A stretch of DNA of 64,000 bases from a virus: the IMG/VR virus record IMGVR_UViG_3300030328_002692, positions 27,134-91,133 of that record; one strand, 5' to 3'. Below the pieces are notes generated by a model, which worked only from the letters and a program-made list of their open reading frames with translations, did no database searches and was not told the DNA's origin. Positions 14,008-63,391 of this stretch are shown here, piece after piece. The position numbers were made by a program, and so were the translations under genes. Numbering within the stretch: position 1 is the first letter of the stretch; every line of letters starts with the position of its first letter.

Positions 14008-14010
14008 AAT

Positions 14011-16437: not shown

Positions 16438-16438
16438 A

Positions 16439-19735: not shown

Positions 19736-19741
19736 ATTATC

Positions 19742-19933
19742 TTAATCCGTATATGCGTGATTTTGATTTGAGTGTTTTTCCCATTTATCACTGCTATTAT
19801 ATATTAATTTTAATGAGTCTCCTGCTATTATATTTGCTTTTCCTGGTGGAAACCAACATATATCTCCTGTTTTAGCTTCAGGTGTCCAAAATTCATCTGA
19901 ATTTACAAATGTTAAAATTTCTGCTTCTGTCAT
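19742..19933 (-). CDS. Small fibre-associated protein (63 aa)
   Basis: AGGA SD. Follows fibre 19946..22603 and shares a GxANIxAG...SxDKW motif with 10599..10766. Confidence 0.7.
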   Translation of the reverse strand: MTEAEILTFVNSDEFWTPEAKTGDICWFPPGKANIIAGDSLKLIYNSSDKWEKHSNQNHAYTD

Positions 19934-19945
19934 AATTATTCCTTA

Positions 19946-22603: not shown

Positions 22604-22605
22604 AA

Positions 22606-25188
22606 TTAACTTACTATGGTTCTATCTGTACTTCTTCTCCAGTTAGTGCCATCGCTAAACGCTAATACTGCACCGCCTGTTTCATCTGTTACAAATATAA
22701 CTCCGCCTGCGACAGCAGTTGGCAATGAAGCAACTGCATAGCTTTTAACTTTTAATACATCAGGCATATCCAACCTAGCTGATGCTAATTTAGCTGAAGT
22801 AATACTTGCGTCTGTTGGAACATTTACACTTGTCTGTGTAAATATCATTACTTCTACTGTTGATGTTGAGGGTGGTGCTTCTGAGAAAGTTATTGTAGTA
22901 CCTGAAGTACTATAACTTCCTTTCTGCTGATATACACCATCTATAAATACTTGTGTATTATTTTCTGTAATTGGGGCTAATGATAAAGTAAATGCTACTC
23001 TACTTCCATTAACGTTGTTCGGGCTTGACGTTGAACTTGTATAAGTATCAATATTAGTATTTCCACCAGAAATTAATGCTTTAATATGATGAACTACAAT
23101 TGTTCTTCCGTTTGCTGGTGCTGTATCAAAGGTTAATCTTGCACTATTTAGTACATAGTCATTTTTATTTTGATATACACCTTCTATAAATACCATTAAA
23201 TTATCTTCGCTATTCGGTATTTGACTTAAATCTACATAGGCTTGAGACCCATCACCTGTGAAAGTTTGAGTGGTAAAGTTTGACTCTCCACCGCCAATTC
23301 CTCCCCAGCTACCAGAGTATCCCTCAAATAAATTATTATCAGTATTAAATCGAATCATTCCAACAGCCGCACTTCCAGGTCTTTGAGCGGTTGTCCCATC
23401 AGGCACTCTTATAGACCCAGTACCACTGAGTACTATATCGTCAGCAATTTGATCTCCTGTGATTTGATTATCGTCAATATGTCTAGTTAAAATTGAGTTT
23501 GATGCAATTTTTGTTCCATCTACGGCATTATCTGCAATGTTTGAAGTTGCAATAGTATTAGCCGCTATTTTTGCTGATGTAACTGAAGCGTTTACTATAG
23601 AAGCTGTGACTACTGAGCTAGCTGCTAGTTCGTCGGCTCCTACTGCGTCATCTGCTAAGTGTTCGTTTAATATGCTACCGTTTGGTATTTTTGCTGCTGT
23701 TACTGAGTTAGCTGCTATTAGTCCTGAAGTGATTGCTCCAGTTGCTATCATGCCTGTCTCTACTGCTTGTGAAGCTATAGTCATAGCACCTGTTGATGCT
23801 AGTGTTACATCTCCTGATATTACTTTGTTATCCCAACTGTTAGAGCCATCATAAATCATTAAGTGACCTGCAGCTGGAGAAGATACTACTGTGTCTGTCA
23901 AAGCTGCTAAAGTTGATACAACACCTGTTAAGTTTGAGCCATCTCCATAAAATGCTCCACCATGAATATCTGCATAAGAACTAACAGTTACATTGCCTGC
24001 TGTTGTTCCATCTTCTGTTGTATTGATTGCTGACCATCTGTCTGCACTTTCGTCCCATATCCAACCTACGTTGGCTGAGGTTCCTCTTTCGACTATTATA
24101 CCTGAGTCTTTACTAGGTGTTCCTGTTTCTCCAGAGGAGTATACTGCTAGCGGGTCTGCAACTTTTATATTTGTTGTATTTACAGTTGTAGTTGTTCCTG
24201 AAACAGTTAAGTTACCTTGAACTACTAAATTTCCTGAGATTGTTGGACTTGCATCTAAAGCGATACTTACTTGGTTGTTTGTAACTGTTGAAGTTAGGTT
24301 TGAGCCACCAGCTATTGTAAAAGTATCTGTACCTACAGTTAGTGTATCGTTAGAGCCTGAGTCTGCTCCTATAGTAAGAATACTACTTGTAGCTGCTGTT
24401 GAAGCTGCTGTAATTCTTCCATCTGCGTCTACTGTTAATACAGGTATTGCTGAACTTGACCCATATGAACCAGCTGTTACTGCAGTTGCGGTTAATTGAG
24501 TTGCTCCAATAGAGCCATCAGCTATTTTTGCTGAAGTTACAGAGTTATCTGCTAGTTTGGAAGTTACTACTGCTCCAGTTGCTATTTTATCTGCAGTTAC
24601 TGCATCATCAGCTACTGCTGAAGCTGTACCAGTTAAATTACCTGTAACATTACCTGTTAGTGTTGCTACTAGAGTTCCTGTAACTGTTGCTCCTGTGTTT
24701 GTTGTTTCAAACTTTTTAGAATCATTAAAGTAAAGACTTACTGCTCCATCATCAACGAAAGTAGCCATAGTTTCACCAGTTCCTAGTATATCTACTTGAC
24801 TTCCTTTTATTTTTAAGTTTCCTGTTCCTGAATCTTCTACATAAGAATCCGAACCGTCATGATATAGTAGTAAATCTTGAGAAGTACCTAACTTAATTTG
24901 TGCATTATCATTAAATAATACATGACTTGTTAGAGTTGCTATTTGGTCAGCTGTTACAGCGTCATCTTGTATTTGAAGACTTCTTACTGCATCAGTTTTT
25001 ATTTCTGAGGCATCTATTGCATTTGCTGCTACTAGTGCGCTTGTTACTGAATTTGCTGCTAATAAAGAAGTAGTTACAGCTCCTGTAGCTATTTCTCTTG
25101 CTGTGATGTTGTTTTCTGCGATTAAGTTTGATGTGATAGCATTTATCGCTGGAAAAGTATCTACTGGTTTCTTACCTATATATGCCAT
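22606..25188 (-). CDS. Fibre protein with two C-terminal adaptor-like domains (candidate branching hub)
   Basis: MAYIGKKP start, three blocks of 10-aa repeats, and two copies of a VFI[ED]GVYQ...Y...TF..AP domain. Confidence 0.72.
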   Translation of the reverse strand: MAYIGKKPVDTFPAINAITSNLIAENNITAREIATGAVTTSLLAANSVTSALVAANAIDASEIKTDAVRSLQIQDDAVTADQIATLTSHVLFNDNAQIKLGTSQDLLLYHDGSDSYVEDSGTGNLKIKGSQVDILGTGETMATFVDDGAVSLYFNDSKKFETTNTGATVTGTLVATLTGNVTGNLTGTASAVADDAVTADKIATGAVVTSKLADNSVTSAKIADGSIGATQLTATAVTAGSYGSSSAIPVLTVDADGRITAASTAATSSILTIGADSGSNDTLTVGTDTFTIAGGSNLTSTVTNNQVSIALDASPTISGNLVVQGNLTVSGTTTTVNTTNIKVADPLAVYSSGETGTPSKDSGIIVERGTSANVGWIWDESADRWSAINTTEDGTTAGNVTVSSYADIHGGAFYGDGSNLTGVVSTLAALTDTVVSSPAAGHLMIYDGSNSWDNKVISGDVTLASTGAMTIASQAVETGMIATGAITSGLIAANSVTAAKIPNGSILNEHLADDAVGADELAASSVVTASIVNASVTSAKIAANTIATSNIADNAVDGTKIASNSILTRHIDDNQITGDQIADDIVLSGTGSIRVPDGTTAQRPGSAAVGMIRFNTDNNLFEGYSGSWGGIGGGESNFTTQTFTGDGSQAYVDLSQIPNSEDNLMVFIEGVYQNKNDYVLNSARLTFDTAPANGRTIVVHHIKALISGGNTNIDTYTSSTSSPNNVNGSRVAFTLSLAPITENNTQVFIDGVYQQKGSYSTSGTTITFSEAPPSTSTVEVMIFTQTSVNVPTDASITSAKLASARLDMPDVLKVKSYAVASLPTAVAGGVIFVTDETGGAVLAFSDGTNWRRSTDRTIVS

Positions 25189-25523
25189 TATGTTTGCTCC
25201 ATTACTGATACGATAGTGTCTACCGATGCTGCTGTGTTTGAGACTACTTTTATTTTATCTCCTGTTTCTAATACGAGTTTTTGGTCTCCACCTACAGCCA
25301 CTAATGCGCCTCCAGTATATATCTGGGCGTCTTTTACTATGTTAAAATTATTATTTGCGGAAGAATCGTAGAATTTTATAGTTACAAGTATAGGACTAGT
25401 ACTTGACACATTTGCGCAAGTCAATCCGATTACTGTAGCCGTAACTCCACTTCCTGCTGTATAAGCGTCCGTTAAAGTTGTGCCTGTAGCTGCGATAGCA
25501 GCGTTTTTAAAAGTATTTGCCAT
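25188..25523 (-). CDS. Small virion/fibre-associated beta-sandwich protein
   Basis: MANTFKN...KLVLETGDKIKV. Translationally coupled inside the fibre operon. Confidence 0.6.
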   Translation of the reverse strand: MANTFKNAAIAATGTTLTDAYTAGSGVTATVIGLTCANVSSTSPILVTIKFYDSSANNNFNIVKDAQIYTGGALVAVGGDQKLVLETGDKIKVVSNTAASVDTIVSVMEQT

Positions 25524-25527
25524 TGTT

Positions 25528-25719
25528 TTATCCTAGTGCTATTGCGAGTGCTATTGCATCGTCTTCAGAAGCGTCTATTGGTTTTATAGTATTATCTGTT
25601 TGTCTAATATATAATTTTCCATCTACTGCGCTAATACATACTTCTCCTATTGCTATGTCATCTACACCTGGTGCAGTAGTATTAGTGACGTTTCTTTTTA
25701 ATTTAATTTGTTGTGTCAT
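25528..25719 (-). CDS. Small fibre adaptor with IKLKR N-terminal motif
   Basis: IKLKRN...P....GE.....DGKLYI resembles fibre attachment N-termini. C-terminal AIALAIALG. Confidence 0.6.
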   Translation of the reverse strand: MTQQIKLKRNVTNTTAPGVDDIAIGEVCISAVDGKLYIRQTDNTIKPIDASEDDAIALAIALG

Positions 25720-27035
25720 TAGCTATATGTTCCACCGTCTATGTTCTGCATTTGAAAACCAGACCCTGTTGAGACCATTATTTGACCTGTAGAACCATGA
25801 GAAGTCATACCTGTTCCACCATATTGTGTACCTACTGCAGTACCATTCCAAGTACCGCTTCCTATTGTTCCAACCACTGTCAGATTAGTTAAACTATCTA
25901 TTGCTGCTTCAAGTGTTGCTTCTGTTGTATTATCTATAACATCAATATTTTGTAGTGTTAAAGTACCTGAACTATCTGAGAAAGGAACTGAAGAACCAAC
26001 AGTTAAACCTGTATTTCCTGTTTCAAGATTTGCTTTTAATGTACCAATACTTCCACTAAACACATTTGAAGTATCAGTAGCGTCTGGAATAAATGCAAAT
26101 TTATTATCAGATTCATCAAATCCCATAAATGCAAATTTAGTTGCTCCACCTGCATTATATTTAAGTTTTAAACCTCTATCTAAATTATCATCACTAGAAT
26201 CATCTCCTAGTTCAAAAATTGGGTCTTTGATTGAAACTGTTGTTGAATTTACAGTAGTAGTTGTACCACTTACTGTTAAATTACCTGTAACTGTTAAGTT
26301 ATCACTAACTGTTACTTCTGATGTGGTATGACCAATTGTTACTGGTATGCCTGATGTTGCTGTAGCTACTTTAACACCATTTGTACTATCTGAAGTATCT
26401 ATTGTAACAGCACCACTTGCATCAACGTCCATAGTAGTAGCATTTAAATCTACTGCCCCGTCTACTGTTAGTGAGCCGTCAATATCAGTATTATCTAAGT
26501 TTGCAACTCCATCAACATCAATATTACCTGATACGTCTAGAGTTGCTGCATCTAGCTCACCTGTTAAAGTAATATTTCTAAAACCTGTTACGTCTTTGTT
26601 AGAATCTACAATTACAGCTTTACTTGCAACTACTGTGCCTACTGTAGAACCGTCTAGTAGATTTAATTCTGTTGCTGTAGAAGTTACTCCGTCTAATATA
26701 TTTAGTTCTGCTGCTGTTGATGTTACAAGTGTATCTGAGCCACTTGTTCCTATGTATAATGCTGCTGTTCTTAACTCTGAAGTCGACTTATTTGCGTCTA
26801 CAATTAATGCCGAACTTGCTGTAGTTGTACCATGAGCATGATCCATTAGATTGCTGAAGTAATTACCGCCTATTACTGTTACAGCGTTTGAGTTTGCAGG
26901 GTCACCAATAAATAGCCTTTGTCCCATGTTGGACTGTGTACCAGCCCCACCTGAAAACGCTAATTCTCCCGCATTTAAAGAACTGGGTGCGGTACTACCT
27001 GTCGTTCTTTTAATTTTAATTATGTTTGTTGCCAT
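25719..27035 (-). CDS. Proximal tail fibre protein
   Basis: IKIKRTTGSTAPSSLNAGELA N-terminus, TAAELNILDG repeats, GNLTVSGTTTTVNS shaft and IDGGTY end. Confidence 0.75.
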   Translation of the reverse strand: MATNIIKIKRTTGSTAPSSLNAGELAFSGGAGTQSNMGQRLFIGDPANSNAVTVIGGNYFSNLMDHAHGTTTASSALIVDANKSTSELRTAALYIGTSGSDTLVTSTAAELNILDGVTSTATELNLLDGSTVGTVVASKAVIVDSNKDVTGFRNITLTGELDAATLDVSGNIDVDGVANLDNTDIDGSLTVDGAVDLNATTMDVDASGAVTIDTSDSTNGVKVATATSGIPVTIGHTTSEVTVSDNLTVTGNLTVSGTTTTVNSTTVSIKDPIFELGDDSSDDNLDRGLKLKYNAGGATKFAFMGFDESDNKFAFIPDATDTSNVFSGSIGTLKANLETGNTGLTVGSSVPFSDSSGTLTLQNIDVIDNTTEATLEAAIDSLTNLTVVGTIGSGTWNGTAVGTQYGGTGMTSHGSTGQIMVSTGSGFQMQNIDGGTYS

Positions 27036-53625: not shown

Positions 53626-53998
53626 TCTTGACTGTAGTAACTTCTCTATAGTACACTACAACATCTTTTAGTTCAGTGATATATCTTTTTAACTCTTGCA
53701 TATTGTATGCCATCATTTCGTAATCTGGTATGCTTAATGCTAAAAAGACTAATTCGCCTTCCTGTTCTTCTATGATTTTTAACTGCTCTTCCCAATTGTC
53801 AGGAGTTACAGTTAACCATTTCACATCTTTTAGGTCAATTTCTCTAGGCATAACAGGTTGGATAATATTTCTATCCATCGGTTTTGCTGTGACCTCTATC
53901 TGTTTAGTTGGAATTAGGCTGCAACTGCAAACCATCATCGAGATTATCAACGGTATCGCTAAGCTTTTCGATGTCTTCCATAATGTGTTTTGTTCCAT
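53606..53998 (-). CDS. o-spanin (Rz1-like lipoprotein)
   Basis: Hydrophobic stretch followed by a lipobox-like VCSC and a Pro-rich segment. Overlaps the 3' end of the i-spanin. Confidence 0.75.
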   Translation of the reverse strand: MEQNTLWKTSKSLAIPLIISMMVCSCSLIPTKQIEVTAKPMDRNIIQPVMPREIDLKDVKWLTVTPDNWEEQLKIIEEQEGELVFLALSIPDYEMMAYNMQELKRYITELKDVVVYYREVTTVKNEPAQD

Positions 53999-54299
53999 TG
54001 TTTATTTTCCTTTGCATTTCTACAGGGTCAGATAGAATTTTTGCAGTTAATTCATAATTTTGAATAAATTGTGTATATCTGTTCAACTCTCTCTGTGCTG
54101 CTTGACTTTTCTTAGTCATATTTTGAAGTTGTTCTGTCTGTAGAGTAAAATCTGCTTCTAGTGCAGCGATTGCTTCTTCTTGGGTAGCAATTGCTCCCTC
54201 TAACTGTAAGTTATTCGCTGTTAATGTTTGATTTTGTTGGTATAAGTAGTAACTTCCAAGTGAAAGTACTAAAATTATGCCTATAAATAATTGATTCAT
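53904..54299 (-). CDS. i-spanin (Rz-like)
   Basis: N-terminal TM anchor followed by a long coiled coil. Confidence 0.78.
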   Translation of the reverse strand: MNQLFIGIILVLSLGSYYLYQQNQTLTANNLQLEGAIATQEEAIAALEADFTLQTEQLQNMTKKSQAAQRELNRYTQFIQNYELTAKILSDPVEMQRKINNGTKHIMEDIEKLSDTVDNLDDGLQLQPNSN

Positions 54300-54300
54300 A

Positions 54301-54462
54301 TTAAAATATCCATATTAATAGTATTGCTATTACGAACCCTTTAGTAAAAGCAACCCATAACATTTTATAATGGCTCCATCCTAATAAATCTTGCCATTTT
54401 TCGACTAGGTCTTCGTGCCAGACAATAAAGTCCAGCCATTTATCTTTTAGAAATTCTTTCAT
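54301..54462 (-). CDS. 53-aa membrane peptide (not in ORF track)
   Basis: Translated by hand: MKEFLKDKWLDFIVWHEDLVEKWQDLLGWSHYKMLWVAFTKGFVIAILLIWIF. ATGA overlap with the upstream gene. Confidence 0.6.
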   Translation of the reverse strand: MKEFLKDKWLDFIVWHEDLVEKWQDLLGWSHYKMLWVAFTKGFVIAILLIWIF

Positions 54463-54707
54463 AGTGCTTGTATCCTGTAATTGAGCCCTTCAGCTCCTCT
54501 AATTTCTACTATATCACCCTCTTGGGTTTTAAATTTTAGAAAATTAGGTTGTTTTTTGTAAAACTTACTAACTATAAAAGTCTGGTCGTCTGCGTCGCCC
54601 CAGGTTTGATTATAACTTACTTTTAATTCGTGATAAGTAACAAACCAACTTTTAAGCCAGTACCAAAATTGAGTTAATTTCTCTAATAACTTCTTAAGAG
54701 TTTCCAC
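54459..54707 (-). CDS. Hypothetical protein
   Basis: 82-aa ORF with an amphipathic N-terminus. Overlaps its neighbours. Confidence 0.6.
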   Translation of the reverse strand: METLKKLLEKLTQFWYWLKSWFVTYHELKVSYNQTWGDADDQTFIVSKFYKKQPNFLKFKTQEGDIVEIRGAEGLNYRIQAL

Positions 54708-54882
54708 TGACTTTCTCTAGCCCTACTTCCGCTAGCTCCTTAGTCATGTATCCGCACTCTCCGCCTTTCCAAGCAAAGAACCACATACCATCTCTTTCGA
54801 AAATTTCTCCGTCATTAGTAGGTGCTTTCATAGTACTCTTTTTAGGTGCTTTCATATCTTTTTTTGAATAGTCATCCATCAT
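54694..54882 (-). CDS. Hypothetical protein
   Basis: 62-aa ORF with a GGAGG SD. Overlaps the iscU stop. Confidence 0.6.
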   Translation of the reverse strand: MMDDYSKKDMKAPKKSTMKAPTNDGEIFERDGMWFFAWKGGECGYMTKELAEVGLEKVSGNS

Positions 54883-55304
54883 ATCGGGCCTCCATTGTGT
54901 TGCCTTTTTGCCTTTTTAGACTCCCAGTGTTCTATTGCTTTCTTTATGCCTGATTCAGCTAATACTGAGCAATGCAATTTGATGGGAGGTAATTCTAGAA
55001 CATCTGCTATGTCCTTATCTTTAATTTCTTTTGCTTCTTCTATTGTTCTTCCTTTTAACATTTCTACAAACATTGTAGAAGAAGCGATTGCTGAACCACA
55101 ACCATAAGTTTTAAACTTAACATCTAGTATTCTATCGTTATCGTCTAACTTTAAGTCTAGTTTCATTACGTCGCCACAAGATGGTGCTCCTACCATTCCT
55201 GTTGCTACATTTGGGTCTGAGGGGTCAAATCTACCCACTGAGTGTGCGGCAGGGTTGTCTAAGACGCTTTCGAATCTTTCAACAACCTTGCGCGAGTATG
55301 CCAT
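54879..55304 (-). CDS. iscU: Fe-S cluster scaffold protein IscU
   Basis: GAPSCGDVM, FKTYGCGSAIASS and LPPIKLHCS: all three Cys ligands plus an HscA-binding LPP[VI]K motif. Confidence 0.95.
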   Translation of the reverse strand: MAYSRKVVERFESVLDNPAAHSVGRFDPSDPNVATGMVGAPSCGDVMKLDLKLDDNDRILDVKFKTYGCGSAIASSTMFVEMLKGRTIEEAKEIKDKDIADVLELPPIKLHCSVLAESGIKKAIEHWESKKAKRQHNGGPI

Positions 55305-55913
55305 CTAGAAATGGAAATATAATCCTAACGAAGCGTTGTCCATGAATTGGTCTTGTCTTGCATCGTCTAACATGTAGAAACGTGCTTCCAAGTTATCGCC
55401 GAGTTTTTTACTCATACCGAGAGCCCAAAAATCATTGTCCTCATCAAACATTCCGTAATCAACCCAAACGTCCATAAACTTGACGAAAGGTAATCTTAAC
55501 TGCAATTCCATAAAATCTTTATCTGAATCTTCTGTATCTACATAGTAGGAAAATGAGACATTTTTTAAATGTACTTTTGCAAACATTTCTTCGACATCAT
55601 CGTAGCCTTTATCCCAGTTGTATTGGATAACACCCACATCTACTGAAAACTTGTCAGATACCATAAGTTCGTATCCTAAGAACAAGTCCATTTCATATGT
55701 AGCTTCGTCTCCAAAATCAACTTCTGAAGCCCAAACACCACCATATAGGCCACCGTTACTAACCTTTAGCTCACCTTGCATAGCTGCATTACCTGAAGAT
55801 TGGCTTACACCTCTCCACATATAATCTGAACTATACCCTAAATAACCATCAACACCTGCAAATGCGGGTAAAGTTACTAATGTGAGTAATAATGCTAATA
55901 TTTTATTTTTCAT
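55305..55913 (-). CDS. Outer-membrane beta-barrel (TIGR02001/TorF-like putative porin)
   Basis: Signal peptide (AFA), SDYMWRGVSQS...A.QG, G.Y.GVWAS.VDF and E.D...GY motifs, and a C-terminal Phe. Confidence 0.85.
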   Translation of the reverse strand: MKNKILALLLTLVTLPAFAGVDGYLGYSSDYMWRGVSQSSGNAAMQGELKVSNGGLYGGVWASEVDFGDEATYEMDLFLGYELMVSDKFSVDVGVIQYNWDKGYDDVEEMFAKVHLKNVSFSYYVDTEDSDKDFMELQLRLPFVKFMDVWVDYGMFDEDNDFWALGMSKKLGDNLEARFYMLDDARQDQFMDNASLGLYFHF

Positions 55914-55926
55914 ATGTCGTTCCTTT

Positions 55927-56151
55927 TTAACTGTGCATCATAAAGATGCTAATAACTACACTAGCGCCACCCACAATAATAGTACCACAAGCTGCAATAG
56001 CTATGGACTCTAAACGACTAATACCATTGTCTAGACTGTCGAGCCTGCTAAAACAAGTTCTCCATCGTTCGTCACACATTACTTCGTGTTTTGACATTCT
56101 TTTATCTAGTTCCATAATATCTTCGTGATCTTTTGTAGATTGCTGATTCAT
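55927..56151 (-). CDS. Small protein with coiled coil and C-terminal TM helix (holin/XhlA-like)
   Basis: HE..C.ERW...RL..LE followed by a hydrophobic C-terminus. Confidence 0.55.
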   Translation of the reverse strand: MNQQSTKDHEDIMELDKRMSKHEVMCDERWRTCFSRLDSLDNGISRLESIAIAACGTIIVGGASVVISIFMMHS

Positions 56152-56194
56152 GTAAGTTATCTCAGTTCTTTGAATTAAAATTCTATTAAATACA

Positions 56195-56223
56195 ATTATA
56201 TCAAAATCTCAACATCATGTCAA
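56195..56223 (-). promoter_or_regulatory. Consensus sigma70 promoter for the porin-iscU-lysis-terL block
   Basis: Minus strand: TTGACA, 17-nt spacer (ending TGA), TATAAT, with AAAAATA upstream. Confidence 0.88.
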
Positions 56224-56226
56224 GAA

Positions 56227-58008
56227 TTATTTTTGTATGGTGTATATTTTGACTGGTTCGGATTTGCCTTTTACCGTTACCTCATCTAAAAACTCGTAAT
56301 CAAAACCGTCTACCAAACTATATTCTGATATGATTAAGTCGGTGTCATAGGTCTTGCATGAGCTTTCTAACCTTGCTGCCAGATTGACAGCATCGCCAAG
56401 AACACTATAATCGAAACGGCTGCTGGAGCCAAAATTGCCCACCACACACGGGCCAGTATTGATTCCAGCTCCTGTATTAATTTGGTCAAGGCCTTCCTCT
56501 GCAAGTTGTTCATTTAACTCTCCTAATGCTGTACGCATTTCGAGTACGCATTCTGTAGCTTTCCTTTCTTGTTCTTCAACATCAAGAGGTGCATTCCAGA
56601 AAGCCATGATGCAGTCCCCCATGTACTTATCGATTGTACCACCGTGCCTAAGAATTATCTCGGTCTGGTTGTCTAAAAATCGATTAATAAGAAGTGTAAG
56701 TCCTTGCGGATTCTTTTGGTATTTTTCAGAAATTGGTGTAAATCCCCGAATGTCAGAAAATAGAAAAGTTAGTCGTTTTGTCTCCCCACCCAATCTAAGT
56801 AATGATGGGTCTTTTTGTAATTTTTTAACTAAGTCTGGGCTTACGTAGGTGCCAAATTGTTTTTTAATTTCCATTCTCATGAAATACTGCTGGATAAAAT
56901 TCCTGAAAGTTACGATAGAAAAGAAAAGAAATCCGACAACCATAGTGCCGGAAACGTCAAGTAAGTAGGAAGATTGGTACGCATACCAGCTACCATACAT
57001 AAGTCCGCCCATGCTAGTTAAAAATATTGGCGCCGAAAGGTAGACATTAGAAGCCGCTATTAGTAGTATGACTATTAATAGTAGTGCGGCTCCTAACTCT
57101 GCCAAGTCCGCCCACGCGGGTTGAACAGGGCTAGTTCCGTTTATTAAATGGTGTAAAACATTTGCCTGTACCTCATGTGGGTAAACAGCGCCATTAGCAG
57201 TAGGAACTGGATTAACAACTCCTTCTGCTGTAACCCCTGCTATTACAAAGGAGGCGCCTTCCATAGGCTCTCGGAGATACTCCGCTGCAGACTGCCTGTG
57301 AAACTTTATATTTGATGTTATCCAAACTCTTGAACGAGAGTCTGTTTTTATAAGTGGAAAATTGGGAATTCTTAGCCACTCAATACCTGTGTCTTTTGTG
57401 TTTATTTGATAACTAGGGTCGCCTACACCTACCCTTAACATTTCTAACGCAAAAGAAGGAAATAATTTACCGCCCGAACTAACGACGAGAGGAAGACGCC
57501 TTACGACGCCGTCTATTTCTGGACTTGAGTTTATTAAGCCTACGCCTTCTGCGTTGTGCTGTTGTCGTAAAATTCCTGGATACTGATATAGCCATTGATG
57601 TGGATCACCTCCTAGTTGTGCAGTACCTACATGAGGTCCTACTTGCGTTGCTTGGTTAGAAGCAGTATATGCCAATACAGCAGGATAAATATCTAGTATA
57701 TCTTCTAAGTATTCATCTTCTACTGTGCCTCGAATATCAGGGTCTGGCATTAATACTGTAATACCAGCAGTTCCCTGCGTTCTTGAAATTAAATGTGAAT
57801 ATAAACTTCTTGGTAGAGGATAACCACCGTATGCCTCTACTATTTCTTCATCAAAGTCTACTAGTAATATCATATTGTCTTGCACAGGCTCGCTAGTCGA
57901 CATGAGCCAATCAAATGTTTTGAGTTCTAATATTTGTAAGGGTGTGGGATTCCAGACTAGAAAAGCCAGGAGTAGTGCCCCAATTAAGGGGTTATAGAGT
58001 TTCTTCAT
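56227..58008 (-). CDS. CHASE2-domain class III adenylate cyclase
   Basis: N-terminal TM, CHASE2 motifs (DEE....GGYPLPR, PEIDGVVRR.PL, PSFALE, EVQAN) and 3 TM helices. Cyclase motifs FSDIRGFT, GGTIDKYMGDCIMAFW, GINTG and DYSVLGDAVNLAARLE. Confidence 0.93.
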   Translation of the reverse strand: MKKLYNPLIGALLLAFLVWNPTPLQILELKTFDWLMSTSEPVQDNMILLVDFDEEIVEAYGGYPLPRSLYSHLISRTQGTAGITVLMPDPDIRGTVEDEYLEDILDIYPAVLAYTASNQATQVGPHVGTAQLGGDPHQWLYQYPGILRQQHNAEGVGLINSSPEIDGVVRRLPLVVSSGGKLFPSFALEMLRVGVGDPSYQINTKDTGIEWLRIPNFPLIKTDSRSRVWITSNIKFHRQSAAEYLREPMEGASFVIAGVTAEGVVNPVPTANGAVYPHEVQANVLHHLINGTSPVQPAWADLAELGAALLLIVILLIAASNVYLSAPIFLTSMGGLMYGSWYAYQSSYLLDVSGTMVVGFLFFSIVTFRNFIQQYFMRMEIKKQFGTYVSPDLVKKLQKDPSLLRLGGETKRLTFLFSDIRGFTPISEKYQKNPQGLTLLINRFLDNQTEIILRHGGTIDKYMGDCIMAFWNAPLDVEEQERKATECVLEMRTALGELNEQLAEEGLDQINTGAGINTGPCVVGNFGSSSRFDYSVLGDAVNLAARLESSCKTYDTDLIISEYSLVDGFDYEFLDEVTVKGKSEPVKIYTIQK

Positions 58009-58201
58009 GTTTTAAAATATATTCCTTCATATCAGTAAGCCAGTCTTTTAATCTCATAGCTTGTTTATAGTGAAAGTGTTTTTGTTCGGGTTCTTTTACG
58101 GCCATTTCCATATGAAAATCGTAACAATGCAAAGCCACAGCTATAGCGTCCTGATAAGGCATCCGCACTAAGCTTGTGAATGTTCGTTTTCCTTTTGTCA
58201 T
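57992..58201 (-). CDS. Small cytoplasmic hypothetical protein in the curli-cyclase operon
   Basis: 69-aa helical ORF overlapping the cyclase start. Confidence 0.6.
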   Translation of the reverse strand: MTKGKRTFTSLVRMPYQDAIAVALHCYDFHMEMAVKEPEQKHFHYKQAMRLKDWLTDMKEYILKHEETL

Positions 58202-58210
58202 TGTAATTTA

Positions 58211-59011
58211 TCATTCTTGTGTTATTGTTATGGTTTTTGTACAATTTGATGTACAGTTAAAAGTTGCAGTATATGACTGATTAGTTGCTCCTTTTTGAGT
58301 AACATTTAAATTATAATCATCTGTGTAAAATTTCATATTTGCTGTATGAGCTCCTGCTCCGTATTGTGTTAAGTTTACAGTCGTATTGTCTGCGTCGTTA
58401 TAAAAAAAGATATCGGCATCTTTGTTTCCAGAACCGTATTGGGTTACTGTGGCGGAGTTATTGTCCGCATTAGGGTAGTTATAAATGTAAGTATTATGTT
58501 CGCCAGTCCCATACTGATTAATAGTGAAATCAGAATCGTCACTGAAAGTGAATATTTTAGCGTACTTATCATTCCCTGTTTGAGTGATTGAATAAGCATT
58601 ATCGTCTCCTGAGCCTAATTGCTCTGCGTGGTTATCGTTTCCGGTTTGTGTTATAGTAGAAGTATTATCATCTTCGTCTTGGTCAAGCCATACAAAGTTA
58701 TCATCTCCTGTTACAGTAATAGTATAAACATTATCCATATTATTTGACCATACAGTATAAAGTCTAGTATTATTACTATTTCCTATAACTGTAGTATTTA
58801 ATGTAGCACTACCACAAGTATGTGAAACATAATTAGTACCTGGCATAGAGCCGCTAGAGCCTGCTCCACATAGTATATATCCTTCATTACCGTTACCAAC
58901 TTGTTTGGCTGTAATGCTAGTGCCAGTTCCTTTAGTAGTTATTGTGAGACTATTATCTCCTGCAAAACTAAGGGGACTGATTAATAATAATAATGTTATC
59001 ACCCGCACCAT
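58211..59011 (-). CDS. Secreted curlin-like beta-solenoid protein 2
   Basis: Signal peptide (SFA|GDN) and many N.A/S.I.Q.G..N repeats of about 22-25 aa. Paired Cys near both ends. Confidence 0.82.
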   Translation of the reverse strand: MVRVITLLLLISPLSFAGDNSLTITTKGTGTSITAKQVGNGNEGYILCGAGSSGSMPGTNYVSHTCGSATLNTTVIGNSNNTRLYTVWSNNMDNVYTITVTGDDNFVWLDQDEDDNTSTITQTGNDNHAEQLGSGDDNAYSITQTGNDKYAKIFTFSDDSDFTINQYGTGEHNTYIYNYPNADNNSATVTQYGSGNKDADIFFYNDADNTTVNLTQYGAGAHTANMKFYTDDYNLNVTQKGATNQSYTATFNCTSNCTKTITITQE

Positions 59012-60071
59012 TTATTTCTACCTCCATTATTACTCCTGCATTATTTATATATAAATAAGTGCCTGCATTTATATCTATTCCTATATCATAAGTATTTACG
59101 CCTGTGTGTACAAAATATATAAGTCCATCTTCTACAAAAGTGTAAGTCTGGTATACAGGGTCAAAACCTCCTATTATACCTGCTAACTCTACTCCTTGTA
59201 GTATAGACTGTGATTGTTTTGATTTCTTGCTTGTAGTTTCAACTAGTGCTAGTAAATCAACTAGGAATTCTATTCCTAATAAATCAATGTCTAATCTTGT
59301 GACTTCTTCTGATTCTTCATCACATTCTTCTACTAGTGCGTCGCAGTCTAAGTCTGGTGCATCTTCAAAGAAATCTTTGTCTAATTCAGCAGTCGGTGAA
59401 GTACCTTGTTGTTGTTCTTCTACTGCTTGTTCGACTTCTGCTGGTCTACTGACAATTAACATATTGTCTATTAAACCAAGAGTCATATTAGCAAGGGTTA
59501 CAGCTTGTGTTGGGGGCTGTTCCCAGGCTGATACCATTGTTGCTTGGAATGGTTCATTTAATATTTCTACTCCTGAAGCTGTGGTTACTGTTATCTCTCC
59601 CGAAGAAGTACCATCTTTATTTGGTAGTAGTATAACTAGGCTTCTTCCTAGCTCATCTACAGTAGCCGTAAAATCCGTTCCACGAATACCTATTGTAGCT
59701 GTAGGAGTCTTGATAGAGATGTTCTCTTTATCAATCATTCCAAGTTTGCCCGTAATGAAACGAGCTGTTCCTGATGCCATATTAAAAGCCATTTCACTTT
59801 TACTAGGGTCAGGGTCAAAAATGAATTTATCGATTATAACTTTAGAATGTTCTGTAAGTTTAAGGACTGAATCGTCAATAAACTGTATTGCCATTCTACC
59901 GTTACCTGTTCGGACATCATCAAATGAGTAGATATCTGAGTCTAGTTCCGCTGTGAGAGTTTCACTAGAGTCTTGTCTAGTAATCTCTCCGTTTCCCTTT
60001 AACTCAGATATCCCTCCAATTTCGGACGCGCTAATTGTTCCTACGAAAAGTATTAACAGCCAGAAGCGCAT
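58968..60071 (-). CDS. Periplasmic FecR-domain protein
   Basis: Signal peptide; D.VRTG.G...I.F.D.S...L, G..RF.TG and I.TPTATIGIRGTDF FecR-domain motifs; acidic C-terminal half. Confidence 0.85.
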   Translation of the reverse strand: MRFWLLILFVGTISASEIGGISELKGNGEITRQDSSETLTAELDSDIYSFDDVRTGNGRMAIQFIDDSVLKLTEHSKVIIDKFIFDPDPSKSEMAFNMASGTARFITGKLGMIDKENISIKTPTATIGIRGTDFTATVDELGRSLVILLPNKDGTSSGEITVTTASGVEILNEPFQATMVSAWEQPPTQAVTLANMTLGLIDNMLIVSRPAEVEQAVEEQQQGTSPTAELDKDFFEDAPDLDCDALVEECDEESEEVTRLDIDLLGIEFLVDLLALVETTSKKSKQSQSILQGVELAGIIGGFDPVYQTYTFVEDGLIYFVHTGVNTYDIGIDINAGTYLYINNAGVIMEVEINGAGDNIIIINQSP

Positions 60072-60730
60072 TGATCGACGTCTATCGTTCCATTTGAAGT
60101 TGTGGATATTAAGTTCACAACATTTGTAGAAGCAGTATCAGTTTGGTCAATAGTTATAGTATTTGAGCCTCCTGTTATTGAAGCTGTTATACTGTGGTCA
60201 GCTGAACCAGTCTGTGTAGTAGTAATATCATTACTATTTCCACTAACAGTCCAGTTATTAATACAGCCAACTACTTCACAAGTACCTGTGTACTCATTAG
60301 AAGTACCAGTAATTACAAAATCCTGATTACCTCCAGTAGCTGTTGAAGCTGCACCTTGTGTCCAAGTGAATATATTACTGTCGCCAGTTGCAGCGTAGTC
60401 AAAGTCTGATTGAGCTACGTCGCCTGTTCCACCAACAGTAAAAGTTCCTGTATTACTATCCCCAGTTACTATCCAATCCCAACTCGATGAGTTACCCTGT
60501 AATATACTGGCTAGAAAAGAGTTAGTATCTCCAATCTGGTCAATATCTACAGTCATGGAAGTACCTGATAAGGTTACTCTGCTTGATGAAGTACCAACTT
60601 TGTTAGTTGCTCCAATTTGATCAATAGTAAGTGTTAAACCTGTACCAGTTTGAGTGATATAAATATCATTATTTCCTGCAAATGCTCCAAAAGATAGACA
60701 TATCGCGAATAGTCCTAGTATCTTTTTCAT
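60053..60730 (-). CDS. Secreted curlin-like beta-solenoid protein 1
   Basis: Signal peptide (AFA|GNNDIYITQTG) and repeats of I.Q.G..N / V.G.SN. Rich in Thr, Gly, Ser and Asn. Confidence 0.8.
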   Translation of the reverse strand: MKKILGLFAICLSFGAFAGNNDIYITQTGTGLTLTIDQIGATNKVGTSSSRVTLSGTSMTVDIDQIGDTNSFLASILQGNSSSWDWIVTGDSNTGTFTVGGTGDVAQSDFDYAATGDSNIFTWTQGAASTATGGNQDFVITGTSNEYTGTCEVVGCINNWTVSGNSNDITTTQTGSADHSITASITGGSNTITIDQTDTASTNVVNLISTTSNGTIDVDQCASGC

Positions 60731-60732
60731 TT

Positions 60733-61560
60733 TTATTCCTCTTTTAGTTTGGAATAGTTAAAATCCCAAACCTCTTTTTCGAGTCCTTCTATAACCAGTC
60801 CGTAAACGGCAGCTTCTATAGCTGCTCGGACGGCTATATTGGTCGACTCGTTTTCCGTATACCCACTTTCAATTTCGACTAATTCTGTACCCATTTCTAT
60901 GAATCTGAATACGTCGCCTCCACTTGCTGTGGATAATACAGTTTTTGTAGCCGTAACATTTAAGAGTACTTCGCCAGTTTGCACTAGCACAGCTCTAAGG
61001 ACGACGGTTACTTTGTCCTCGCGGTATTGGTTCTTCATACCTATTCCTAAGTATCGAGCTCCATTACCACCTGTCTTTAAATTTGTATCGTATGCTACAA
61101 TTCCACCTTCCATAATCATTCCAGCATATAGTAATGGTTTTAAAATTGTTTTTCCGTCTGCATTCTTATTGTAGCTTTCGTAAGTACTTCTTACAAGTTG
61201 TCTTTCTTTTGTTAAATTATCTAATCCGCCTCTTTCTACCACTACGAACCAATTTCCTTTACCGGCATCGCGAAGTGCTTCCACTAACATATGGTCTGCT
61301 CCTTGAGTTACCGCAGTACTAAAACTAGCGATATTATCGCTGGACTTTCTTTGACCTGTTAGGTCGGAAAAATTATAAACAGCGACTACTGTTTTTCGAT
61401 TTGGATAAGGTAAGTTAAGTAGTTGTTGGGTTGCGCTAGGTTCAATGACTGGACCTTTGATACACATTACTCCGTCCATGCAATTGCCGTGACTTTGGGG
61501 CATGCCAATGGAGGCACAGCCCTGAAGAAACATAAGCGCAACTATTAGGTATTTACTCAC
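60733..61560 (-). CDS. csgG: Curli secretion channel CsgG
   Basis: Lipobox LQGC. VAVY.F.D.TGQRK, STAVTQG, WF.VVER.GLDNL..ERQ and EGGI..YD.N..TGG.GARYLGIG motifs. Confidence 0.95.
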   Translation of the reverse strand: MSKYLIVALMFLQGCASIGMPQSHGNCMDGVMCIKGPVIEPSATQQLLNLPYPNRKTVVAVYNFSDLTGQRKSSDNIASFSTAVTQGADHMLVEALRDAGKGNWFVVVERGGLDNLTKERQLVRSTYESYNKNADGKTILKPLLYAGMIMEGGIVAYDTNLKTGGNGARYLGIGMKNQYREDKVTVVLRAVLVQTGEVLLNVTATKTVLSTASGGDVFRFIEMGTELVEIESGYTENESTNIAVRAAIEAAVYGLVIEGLEKEVWDFNYSKLKEE

Positions 61561-62038
61561 AATTGGTCACACAACCGCCGAAACTACCAACTGGTATTGT
61601 TATAGTGGTTCTTGAGATTTCTACTCCATCTGCCATCTCTATAATTGTTAAGGTTATTGTTATACCATTGTTTAACCATTGGATAATATTACCCTCTAGT
61701 TCTATCTCTCCATAAACGGGGTTTTCTATTGAAGCAGGATTGTCATAGTTAAATAAGGATTCCGATATATCTTTCGCGAGTGTGGAATATATCCTTGACT
61801 CTAAGTTTCTGAGGAACTTAGCGAGTGTTGTATTCTCTGCTTCTCTTTGAGCGTCTTCTAATGCTTCTTGTGCATCTGCTCTGATTTTCTCTTTACGAGT
61901 TCTTTCTTGCTCATCAATTGTTAAATAGTGAGCAGATTGATTAATCCCACTGAAACTGGGATTACCGAATTTATGTACTAGCTCCGTCGCGTTTGCTGTT
62001 GTCGCTAGTGTTAGTAGTATTATTAAGCTTTTTTTCAT
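61553..62038 (-). CDS. csgF: Curli assembly component CsgF
   Basis: Signal peptide, then ELVHKFGNPSFSG (the CsgF N-terminal F.NP.F.G motif), F...LESR and TTITIP. Confidence 0.88.
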   Translation of the reverse strand: MKKSLIILLTLATTANATELVHKFGNPSFSGINQSAHYLTIDEQERTRKEKIRADAQEALEDAQREAENTTLAKFLRNLESRIYSTLAKDISESLFNYDNPASIENPVYGEIELEGNIIQWLNNGITITLTIIEMADGVEISRTTITIPVGSFGGCVTNCE

Positions 62039-62264
62039 TTTCTTTCATCTCTAAAACCGTGTTTACTTTTTCTTGTAAACGGATCATGTCTTGGTCGAGT
62101 AACCTAAGCTGATCTATCAATCGTATGATTGTTATTTTCATTTCATCTATAGCGGGGTCTACGTCCTTGAGGATAGTTTGGTATACAAAGTATACAAAAT
62201 ACCCCATACCGACAGCCATCACAATCGGAAATCCAAATTGGGAAATTAAATCTACAATTTCCAT
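61971..62264 (-). CDS. Small single-pass membrane protein with coiled coil (YvrJ-like N-terminus), paralog B
   Basis: MEIVDLISQFGFPIV...TM...LIDQLRLLDQDMIRL. Overlaps csgF. Confidence 0.65.
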   Translation of the reverse strand: MEIVDLISQFGFPIVMAVGMGYFVYFVYQTILKDVDPAIDEMKITIIRLIDQLRLLDQDMIRLQEKVNTVLEMKENEKKLNNTTNTSDNSKRDGAST

Positions 62265-62528
62265 TTAACTGAATCTACTTTGTATATATTTAAAAATACT
62301 ATAAATTGTTAAACCGTAAAAAGCTAATACGGTCATGGGTAAAGCTATATAAGCTAGTTCCCATGGTGATAGGAATAGTATTTCCCATGTAAAATTTATA
62401 GCAGCTTCTGCATCTCCTGTAGGTTGTTGCATAGTACCGACTTCTGTTACAATGTCGAGCTCATAATCAACAAGAAACTCAGTCCACTCTTCTTCAGTAA
62501 AACAAATAGTACTAGTCTCTTCTTGCAT
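62265..62528 (-). CDS. Small membrane protein
   Basis: Acidic N-terminus and a C-terminal TM helix. Coupled to its neighbours. Confidence 0.6.
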   Translation of the reverse strand: MQEETSTICFTEEEWTEFLVDYELDIVTEVGTMQQPTGDAEAAINFTWEILFLSPWELAYIALPMTVLAFYGLTIYSIFKYIQSRFS

Positions 62529-62805
62529 CTATAGTTCCATCTTCCACAAAGTTTTCTGCTCTCGCAATTCTTTGTAAGTCAGGTGCTAGTCCGAGTGCTG
62601 CGGACACACTAGTGTCAATACGGATTATATCATTATTCATGACTTTCCCTCTTGTTATTAGCATTTCGGACATTCCCTTAACCGTCTTAATCTCTGTAAC
62701 GAGATTTCCCATAATTTGTTTTATAATGATAAATATAAATAGTCCCATAACTAGTGCTCCCGCTATGGGTGCTCCTACTTCTGCTATGAGATTAAATATT
62801 TCCAT
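62512..62805 (-). CDS. Small single-pass membrane protein with coiled coil (YvrJ-like N-terminus), paralog A
   Basis: MEIFNLIAEVGAPIA...TM...MNNDIIRID. Similar to 61971..62264. Confidence 0.65.
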   Translation of the reverse strand: MEIFNLIAEVGAPIAGALVMGLFIFIIIKQIMGNLVTEIKTVKGMSEMLITRGKVMNNDIIRIDTSVSAALGLAPDLQRIARAENFVEDGTIDARRD

Positions 62806-62894: not shown

Positions 62895-63356
62895 TCATTG
62901 GTCTTTCATTAATTTCTTGATCAGTTCTCCGTAATTCCCTTGACCAAATGGCAGCCCACTATTATCTTGAATGTTTACTTGCGTTTTGACTGTCTGTGCC
63001 TTCGCTTTCTCCATTTCTGTTTGAGCTTTAATTTCTTCGATACGCATTTTGTGAGCCATCTGAAGTAAATCTGCCATGTCTTTGTTAGTATAAATCTGAG
63101 TCTCATCTGACTCCTCTAGTTTCTTTTCGATGAGCATATCTAAGGTTTCCGATATCTTAAATCTGTTTCGATATCCAGTATCTAGAAAGACCGTGTCTAT
63201 ATACTGTTTCACTTCCCTTTTATTTAGGGCCTCGCTAACCTGATTTTCGCTCACACCAAGTTTTGCGCAAACTACCGGGATACTTCCGTGTTCCAGATAA
63301 CTGTTTGCGATCTCCAGTCCTTCAGGACTCATTTTGGTTGCTATTTCTTTACTCAT
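62895..63356 (-). CDS. terS: Terminase small subunit (T5-like)
   Basis: MSPEG...AN.YL, EVK.YI..VF.D.GYRNR, KKLEE, AHKMR.EE and NYG.L motifs, as recalled from T5 TerS. Confidence 0.85.
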   Translation of the reverse strand: MSKEIATKMSPEGLEIANSYLEHGSIPVVCAKLGVSENQVSEALNKREVKQYIDTVFLDTGYRNRFKISETLDMLIEKKLEESDETQIYTNKDMADLLQMAHKMRIEEIKAQTEMEKAKAQTVKTQVNIQDNSGLPFGQGNYGELIKKLMKDQ

Positions 63357-63362
63357 GTTTAT

Positions 63363-63391
63363 ATTATACTAAAATTTTAGTTCGGTGTCAA
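63363..63391 (-). promoter_or_regulatory. Consensus sigma70 promoter for the terS-curli-cyclase operon
   Basis: Minus strand: TTGACA, 17-nt spacer, TATAAT. The terS ATG begins 7 nt downstream, which implies a leaderless mRNA. Confidence 0.88.

Follow-up and report, generated by a model that had tools for sequence, protein, structure and literature searches.

The closest described relatives of the locus considered here are viral. A curli gene cluster was described in pelagimyophages (Zaragoza-Solas et al. 2020, PMC7029224), and csgGF of phage Melnitz was later discussed as a possible lysis-timing pore (Buchholz et al. 2022, PMC9004378). A block consisting of a gene labeled histidine kinase ("HK") followed by CsgF, CsgG, CsgA/B, FecR, CsgA/B and an adenylate cyclase (AC) has since been reported in podo- and myo-pelagiphages; it is ubiquitous in ocean viromes and expressed in metatranscriptomes, and podophage versions (HTVC023P-type) often lack the cyclase but carry FecR (Wittmers et al. 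2022, PMC9599517). The locus examined here lies in a 64,000-nt stretch ("the window") of the IMG/VR virus record IMGVR_UViG_3300030328_002692, a linear record of 91,133 bp that CheckV rates 93% complete. Its ten minus-strand genes between positions 56227 and 62805 are a copy of this published viral type VIII secretion (curli) module; the new part is the carrier, a T5-like siphophage, the module itself being already known.

The correspondence with the described phages is close. HTVC008M, a Pelagibacter phage, and Melnitz, a Methylophilales phage, have the same genes in the same order as the window: membrane protein(s), CsgF, CsgG, a curlin-repeat protein, FecR, a second curlin-repeat protein and the cyclase, with no csgC, csgD or csgE. 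Protein identities to these two phages span 28-50% overall (cyclase 37% over its full length, CsgG 48-50%, FecR 39-40%), and a nucleotide-level search of phage records gave short csgG matches to HTVC008M and Melnitz only. The preliminary description of this DNA had taken the link between curli parts and a cyclase to be special to this phage; that claim fails, because HTVC008M and Melnitz carry the identical block and it was described in 2022 (PMC9599517). What does differ is the setting. Known carriers are of podo- or myo-type whereas this one is a T5-like siphophage, and the block sits between terS and terL rather than in a myophage variable region. In the literature searched, T5-like phages and siphophages are nowhere mentioned as carriers of CsgG or curli genes.

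Alphaproteobacterial curli offer a second comparison, sharing with the phage module a CsgG lipoprotein, a CsgF peptide, exported curlin-repeat subunits and the lack of CsgE, CsgC and CsgD (PMC3521004). Absence of csgC, csgD and csgE is normal for curli of this type, and because all Alphaproteobacteria lack CsgE, a missing CsgE is not defining for it (PMC3521004). The same absence had been recorded for the window, and it extends to the whole 91-kb record, in which CsgE (PF10627), CsgC and GerE/LuxR-type (CsgD-like) domains were not found. The phage module differs in adding FecR, a CHASE2 cyclase and small membrane proteins, in keeping the CsgG constriction triad only partly, and in that its fibers are putative. 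Domains were assigned here by Pfam and phage families by PHROGs, in which families exist for the cyclase, FecR, CsgG, CsgF and the small membrane proteins.

Carriers and spread of the module

The T5-like siphophage assignment made in the preliminary description holds. The window's terL product is about 50% identical to those of Vibrio and Pectobacterium T5-like phages, its tail tube is about 37% identical to those of Salmonella T5-likes, and a portal, a protease-capsid fusion, a major tail protein, a tape measure, a distal tail protein, a J-like hub and several long fibers are also encoded. Terminal repeats were not found on the 91-kb contig. Marine or seawater metagenomes are the only metagenomes with the window's stretch, and one related T5-like contig was binned in a Pelagibacter metagenome-assembled genome (MAG), which is weak evidence on the host of the lineage. 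In cultured T5-like relatives terS adjoins terL; in the window about 10 kb separates them, made up of the curli cassette and a second unit. Because both sit there, the terS-terL gap is an auxiliary-gene island.

Ten intact, co-oriented open reading frames (ORFs) run from 62805 down to 56227, 3' of terS, just as first described. They encode, in order, the membrane protein memA, an 87-residue membrane protein, memB, CsgF, CsgG, the curlin-like protein cur1, a FecR-fold protein, the curlin-like protein cur2, a 69-residue ORF and the CHASE2 cyclase. Neighbors abut or overlap by at most 68 nt, the sole gaps being 2 and 9 nt, plus 89 nt behind terS. The latter gene, encoding the terminase small subunit (62895..63356, minus strand; phrog_3802, E = 3.7e-38), is the first of the unit and is preceded by a sigma-70 consensus promoter (TTGACA-17-TATAAT, 12/12; 63363..63391, minus strand), the likely start of the unit. 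Since this perfect promoter lies upstream of terS and no terminator-like site was found between terS and memA, a single transcription unit from the terS promoter is plausible. A second perfect sigma-70 promoter, with a TG extension (56195..56223, minus strand), lies 4 nt past the cyclase stop, at the start of the next unit. Contigs from a marine RNA library are identical to the window on csgG, on the csgG/cur1 junction and on the terS/memA junction, and leave FecR, cur2 and most of the cyclase uncovered, a gap that is uninformative with contigs; with DNA carry-over possible, they are weak evidence of cassette expression. Signal peptides, the lipobox and transmembrane topology fit the compartments first proposed, so that the predicted products would span all layers of the envelope.

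The breadth of the association is best seen among uncultured relatives. Scanning IMG/VR with the cyclase returned more than 600 relatives (single loci are given L numbers below), of which the best 80 were compared. In these, terL is 68-89% identical to that of the window or T5-type island genes lie beside the cyclase; T4-type flanks were seen in 0/80. Where loci span terS to terL (21 of them), the order is memA, memB, CsgF, CsgG, cur1, FecR, a variable slot and AC, with L074, where cur2 comes before CsgF, as the one exception. Between FecR and AC, the slot holds cur2, an unrelated ORF of about 145 residues, or nothing. In a T5-like set seeded instead with terL, the cyclase is present in 15/16 contigs with enough upstream sequence, the sole negative contig ending just beyond the gene that follows the cyclase, and in a CsgG-seeded myophage set FecR is found in 18/18 and the cyclase in 17/18. 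The co-occurrence on which the preliminary description had staked its case is thus real, and in a large uncultured marine T5-like lineage the cassette is a near-constant occupant of the terS-terL interval.

Phylogeny of CsgG points to exchange between phage families. With the tree rooted on E. coli, all phage copies group together; an HTVC008M/Melnitz-type clade (Shimodaira-Hasegawa-like approximate likelihood ratio test, SH-aLRT, 97) stands against a clade with all T5-like copies (94), and the window's CsgG falls in a small, long-stemmed subclade (SH-aLRT 100). The T5-like clade also holds three other contig types, namely L085, one with a head-scaffold gene beside the cyclase, and L089. L085 is a 121-kb contig from a MAG labeled Sphingobacteriales, and its T4-type clamp loader and cobS mark it as a myophage; because its CsgG is nested among T5-like carriers and not with HTVC008M and Melnitz, the sequence relationships point to exchange of the block between phage families. 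L089, a contig from a MAG labeled Nisaea, has a GC content (0.52) far above that of marine lytic phages; genes for an integrase and a Cas4-type exonuclease adjoin its memA-like ORF, CsgF, CsgG, cur1, FecR and cyclase, and the contig may be a temperate element or prophage with the cassette. Backbones with the block thus include T4-like, T5-like and podophage-like phages and an integrase-bearing contig, and the block therefore moves between unrelated phages while being kept almost complete. Around it, a NifU-like gene is found upstream of memA in many T5-like loci (e.g., L015, L020, L025 and L029) and downstream of the cyclase in the window; the island has therefore been rearranged around a fixed cassette core.

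Inheritance and structure of the export and display genes

Within the cassette, the FecR gene follows the channel genes. Mantel tests on pairwise divergence across 29 T5-like loci gave a rho of 0.77 for CsgG and FecR (p 0.0005), 0.27 for FecR and AC, and 0.15 for CsgG and AC. Identity clusters of CsgG and FecR have almost equal membership, and those of the cyclase and memA cut across them. As FecR divergence and clusters track CsgG and not the cyclase, this comparison of sequences indicates that csgF-csgG-cur1-FecR(-cur2) is exchanged as a unit, independently of the cyclase, in the T5-like lineage. It had been proposed at the outset that FecR's main job is to pass a signal to CHASE2; inheritance with CsgG rather than with the cyclase speaks against this, as do the published podophage versions that often have FecR without a cyclase.

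The channel components are well preserved. CsgG (60733..61560; PF03783, E = 1.3e-56) is a lipoprotein with lipobox LQGC; it is 39% identical to E. coli CsgG (phage copies 36-41%), and the lipobox Cys is invariant. At the constriction triad Y51/N55/F56, T5-like copies keep the Phe only, and HTVC008M and Melnitz have Leu there. CsgF (61553..62038; PF10614, E = 2.8e-12) has a signal peptide and keeps, relative to E. coli CsgF, the mature N-terminal F-x-N-P-x-F-x-G, in which F26, P29, F31 and G33 are invariant; a conservation profile over 51 loci shows this mature N terminus to be strongly conserved. In E. coli the CsgF N-terminal peptide sits inside the CsgG barrel. Its retention in the phage protein speaks against the idea that the pairing of CsgF with CsgG has been given up in phages.

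Both curlin-like proteins carry a Sec signal peptide. cur1 (60053..60730) is universal in the cassette and is predicted to be an exported beta-solenoid. Its own Curlin_rpt match (0.0022) is below the Pfam cut-off; 18/29 members of the family match, the best at 6.8e-7. The AlphaFold2 model (predicted local distance difference test, pLDDT, 84.7) is an all-beta solenoid whose best fold match is Pontibacter CsgA (8c50_A; Z 18.7, 190 aligned residues, 20% identity, root mean square deviation [rmsd] 8.5), with generic solenoids behind at Z 15-17. cur2 (58211..59011), an accessory protein occupying the FecR-AC slot in 39/71 loci, matches Curlin_rpt clearly (1.8e-12 over three stretches; 47.4 bits against a 20.7-bit cut-off) and has a C-terminal Cys-loop and "V-x-V-T-Q" tail in 29/29 homologs, those of HTVC008M and Melnitz included. 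The preliminary description favored a receptor relay "rather than an amyloid factory." That contrast is unsupported, because the full alphaproteobacterial-type export set is kept, with CsgG, the CsgF peptide and two exported curlin-repeat proteins, one of which has a solved CsgA as its best fold match.

Two proposals concerning tails and slot genes were not upheld. A C-x3-C tail common to CsgF, cur1 and cur2 in the window is confined, for CsgF (4/33) and cur1 (5/38), to the window's allele group, and the Cys-loop is general for cur2 only (29/29). The ORFs of about 140-150 residues in the FecR-AC slot are not short cur2 variants; they belong to a different family. Extra small, very basic ORFs also occupy the slot in some loci (L006, L015, L018, L020 and L050), with tails like "...RHRRNIAKGKMSAAYWANKVKW" and "...KKTRPKTRKSRR".

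The FecR-fold protein (58968..60071; PF04773, E = 3.1e-12) has a signal peptide, and its AlphaFold2 model (pLDDT 70.7) has three regions. Residues 17-192 form a conserved FecR/PupR-type domain that superposes on the PupR C-terminal cell-surface-signaling domain (6ovm_R; Z 14.9, rmsd 2.8, 139 aligned) and on BDI_1681 (4m0h_A; Z 13.3). The PupR domain binds an outer-membrane protein through the latter's periplasmic domain. Residues 207-272, about 65 in all, are an acidic, low-confidence linker, and residues 288-365 a C-terminal beta domain that is variable across 51 loci in which the FecR fold is conserved. Over residues 207-284 there is an acidic, conserved Leu/Asp/Phe pattern; the invariance of D233, L246, L260, D261, L265, D272, L274 and E278 across 30 homologs suggests that the linker is a binding motif and not a passive spacer. 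FecR-fold proteins end in a curlin-like "I-x-I-x-Q" strand; despite this, fold and Pfam searches did not uphold the C-terminal domain as a curlin-like solenoid, giving no clear fold match (best Z <4) and no Pfam match at E<=10.

Two known classes of protein are informative here. With the FecR/PupR anti-sigma factors the phage protein shares the cell-surface-signaling fold and the Pfam FecR match; it differs from them in having no cytoplasmic anti-sigma domain or transmembrane anchor, with a cleavable signal peptide instead. Searches of the 91-kb record gave no match to an extracytoplasmic function (ECF) sigma factor (Sigma70_r2) or to the STN domain of a transducer. It is, then, a FecR-fold protein and not an iron regulator. 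The other class is that of retained adhesins. Residues 15-88 superpose on 5ix9 (Z 7.3, rmsd 1.8 Å, 73/76 residues, 22% identity), a Z score that unrelated small beta domains can also reach; 5ix9 is the MpIBP adhesin retention module, a template for the LapA periplasmic plug (bioRxiv 10.1101/198937, PMC5550230). In the LapA/MpIBP arrangement a periplasmic plug is followed by a flexible stretch that passes through an outer-membrane pore and by an adhesive part outside; the phage protein likewise has a folded N-terminal domain, a linker (modeled at low confidence) and a second domain, and some bacterial FecR proteins encoded beside CHASE2 have cadherin-like, Ig-like and RTX modules. LapA, in contrast, uses a type I system with a TolC-like pore where the phage would use Sec and CsgG.

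A scan of genome contigs for cellular homologs of the viral FecR protein returned eight matches, all marine MAG contigs with cassette genes in phage order, and these are probably mis-binned phage DNA, bar the one with an integrase. A profile search of a 5.8-billion-protein set recovered more than 8000 clusters at 90% identity and, being saturated with phage-type copies, added no cellular context.

The cyclase, its bacterial counterparts and neighboring genes

The last gene of the cassette encodes a CHASE2 class IIIb adenylate cyclase (56227..58008; CHASE2 PF05226, E = 1.6e-28; Guanylate_cyc PF00211, E = 1.1e-19), with one transmembrane segment, a periplasmic CHASE2 domain, three further transmembrane segments and the catalytic domain. 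Its best solved relative is P. aeruginosa CyaB (3r5g, 1.1e-36). Class III catalysis involves two metal-binding Asp residues, a Lys and a Ser/Thr for ATP, an Asn and an Arg, the Lys and Ser/Thr being typical of ATP-specific IIIb enzymes. Aligned with the CyaB motifs, all six positions are intact in the phage protein (D419, D465, K461, S535, N542 and R546).

The preliminary description had noted that CHASE2 cyclases often neighbor FecR-domain genes in bacteria, and this is borne out. CHASE2 is present in 66/151 sampled alphaproteobacterial genomes. Using a hidden Markov model of the viral FecR domain on 40 CHASE2 loci, one per genome, and 20 control windows from the same genomes, we found a FecR-like ORF within 6 kb in 18/40 loci and 0/20 controls (Fisher p 1.8e-4), and within 300 bp in 12/40. 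The nine such neighbors that were scanned all exceeded the Pfam FecR cut-off (9/9), with the FecR domain near the N terminus followed by a long extension; two extensions have cadherin-like and Ig-like modules, and one of those also has RTX repeats. The CHASE2-matching ORFs (n=37) comprise 33 cyclases, 2 SpoIIE phosphatases and 2 kinases. FecR-CHASE2 pairing is therefore a general alphaproteobacterial pattern. FecR-CHASE2 kinase operons are described in Burkholderia and Pseudomonas (PMC5192318). One streamlined marine genome (1.2 Mb, of the family of the Pelagibacter MAG; L295, G010:C1:318111-331130) encodes a CHASE2-SpoIIE (PP2C phosphatase) protein and, 1.3 kb downstream in the same orientation, a FecR-domain protein of 504 residues; the two resemble a native FecR-CHASE2 pair whose output is not a cyclase.

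An experimental precedent for such a cascade is found in Sinorhizobium meliloti, where the FecR-domain gene smc02177 is situated close to cyaD1 and a CyaD1 construct deprived of CHASE2 produces cyclic AMP (cAMP) constitutively (PMC5498481), and where activation of CyaK and CyaD1/D2 by an external protein signal requires the outer-membrane protein NsrA (PMC7529298, PMC13001267). As in the phage module, an outer-membrane protein is combined with CHASE2 class III cyclases, and an exported FecR-domain protein is encoded near one of them. NsrA is, however, a beta-barrel protein that is probably unrelated to CsgG, and the protein sensed by S. meliloti is free ribosomal protein uL2. That cascade has no curlin-like proteins, and it has its own cAMP receptor, Clr, of which no counterpart was found in the phage and in most of the SAR11-family genomes searched. 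By analogy, the phage module may work like the NsrA-CHASE2 cyclase cascade.

At the other end of the cassette, memA (62512..62805; phrog_18771, E = 4.5e-22; transmembrane residues 3-37) and memB (61971..62264; phrog_18771, E = 1.6e-28; N-terminal transmembrane segment) are 97-residue single-pass membrane proteins, paralogs that both belong to the core of the cassette. memA is 42-43% identical to its counterparts in HTVC008M and Melnitz, recurs in every T5-like locus reaching that far, and is the positional equivalent of the gene published as a histidine kinase. That label is unsupported for memA and memB, which have 97 residues, one transmembrane segment and no HisKA or HATPase_c domains. memA has no Pfam match at E<=10 and memB only chance-level ones, apart from which memB weakly matches the holin family phrog_4898 (3.7e-4); the nearest ESM Atlas clusters of both are virus-dominated and without a common Pfam family. 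Between them lies an accessory 87-residue protein with a C-terminal transmembrane segment (62265..62528), seen in one related locus only (L074). The 69-residue ORF next to the cyclase (57992..58201, no transmembrane segment) is not conserved; L003 and L071 alone have ORFs like it, that of L071 at another place in the locus, and its coding status is uncertain.

The second unit of the island (53904-56223) lies directly 3' of the cassette and starts with the second of the perfect sigma-70 promoters (56223-56195). Encoded there are a 74-residue ORF, a Gcw_chp family protein (55305-55913; PF09694, E = 3.4e-16), a NifU-like Fe-S scaffold (54879-55304), three small ORFs and an Rz-like spanin (53904-54299), the last 2 kb downstream of the cassette. 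Elsewhere in the window, a region of about 17 kb (10780-27035) encodes five long fiber proteins of 808-1098 residues with related N termini and different tips, a set unusual for a T5-like tail.

Possible functions of the module

The explanation we favor, with confidence that is evenly balanced, is a curli-type export and display apparatus with FecR on the channel side and the CHASE2 cyclase as a separable, gated output. Lipoprotein CsgG and CsgF would build a curli-type outer-membrane channel in the infected cell; cur1, with cur2 where present, would reach the periplasm via Sec, exit by the channel, and either build or decorate a beta-solenoid structure on the cell surface. The FecR-fold protein would be the periplasmic partner on the channel side, in place of the CsgE-type factor missing from alphaproteobacterial curli, with a variable C-terminal domain suited to the accompanying CsgG and curlins and a conserved FecR fold turned toward a conserved partner. 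The cyclase would be most likely modulated by FecR as in bacterial FecR-CHASE2 pairs, and its cAMP would convey the condition of the channel or of the surface structure, or the presence of a ligand bound to it. Several observations weigh against this explanation. A cyclic nucleotide (cNMP)-binding domain was not found in the phage record, nor in 59/61 genomes of the family of the Pelagibacter-labeled MAG; at least for hosts of the myophage versions, a cAMP output would thus lack a recognizable receptor, and the initial suggestion that cAMP would change host metabolism finds no support in the same searches. CsgG constriction residues are altered relative to E. coli. Melnitz-infected cultures showed no clumping (PMC9004378), and in S. 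meliloti smc02177 is dispensable for perception of the tested plant signal (PMC5498481). Co-inheritance of CsgG and FecR could also stem from adjacency and recombination breakpoints, not from physical contact.

The published view, that the module is a fiber factory only, making curli-like fibers for aggregation ("sibling capture") or for a block to superinfection, with FecR as chaperone or regulator and the cyclase as an independent, merely linked host-takeover gene, draws on the complete alphaproteobacterial-type curli set, on recombination of the cyclase independently of the csgF-FecR block, and on the frequent absence of the cyclase in podophages. We think it unlikely, though deserving of serious attention: a gated CHASE2 sensor is an odd choice for simple cAMP flooding, FecR is strongly enriched beside CHASE2 in bacteria without a curli context, the cyclase is present in 17/18 and 15/16 of unbiased samples, and no clumping was seen with Melnitz. 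The opposite simplification is the one first proposed for the window, in which a non-polymerizing curlin-like sensor held in CsgG/CsgF signals through FecR to CHASE2 and cAMP retimes lysis or metabolism. The relay element of that proposal is plausible, if unproven, given FecR-CHASE2 pairing in bacteria and the span of the envelope; the S. meliloti NsrA-CHASE2 cyclase relay does sense an extracellular protein, and the constitutive activity of CHASE2-deleted CyaD1 argues that CHASE2 cyclases are gated. Near-constant completeness of the module and the lack of clumping with Melnitz fit as well. Its other element, the denial of an amyloid role, is what finds no support, and as a whole this version strikes us as rather unlikely, since the curli export parts are fully conserved down to the CsgF N-terminal peptide, two curlin-repeat proteins are kept with cur1 closest to CsgA, FecR inheritance tracks CsgG and not the cyclase, podophage versions often have FecR without a cyclase, and neither the phage nor 59/61 family genomes showed a cAMP receptor.

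Two further arrangements have smaller claims. It can be envisioned that the FecR-fold protein is threaded through the CsgG/CsgF pore as a surface-to-cytoplasm sensor: the FecR-fold domain would be a periplasmic plug touching CHASE2, the acidic linker would lie in the channel, and the variable C-terminal beta domain would stand outside, capping or nucleating a curlin-like filament. We regard such a tether as decidedly improbable. Least probable of all, and in our view very much so, is that CsgG, with or without CsgF, is simply a lysis-timing pore (pinholin- or secretin-like) or an uptake channel with the rest as accessories. This was put forward for Melnitz (PMC9004378), and the weak holin-family match of memB, the spanin 2 kb downstream in the window's phage and the CsgG constriction residues that differ from E. 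coli can be cited in its favor; it would leave the universal cur1 and FecR and the conserved CsgF peptide unexplained, CsgG is an outer-membrane lipoprotein and not an inner-membrane holin, and the spanin neighbor was detected in the closest relatives only.

The window by itself is a further instance of a published system; what is new is the T5-like carrier lineage and the finding that FecR is inherited with the channel. If the tethered arrangement were true, the module could be a sensor for contact, for superinfecting virions or for proteins from lysed neighbors, and cAMP would act on a non-CRP receptor, for example in timing lysis. The module is abundant in the ocean, and its function is a standing question for the biology of SAR11 and OM43 phages. 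Fixation in the T5-like lineage, the travel of FecR with channel and fiber genes, and the generality of FecR-CHASE2 pairing narrow the hypotheses that can answer it.

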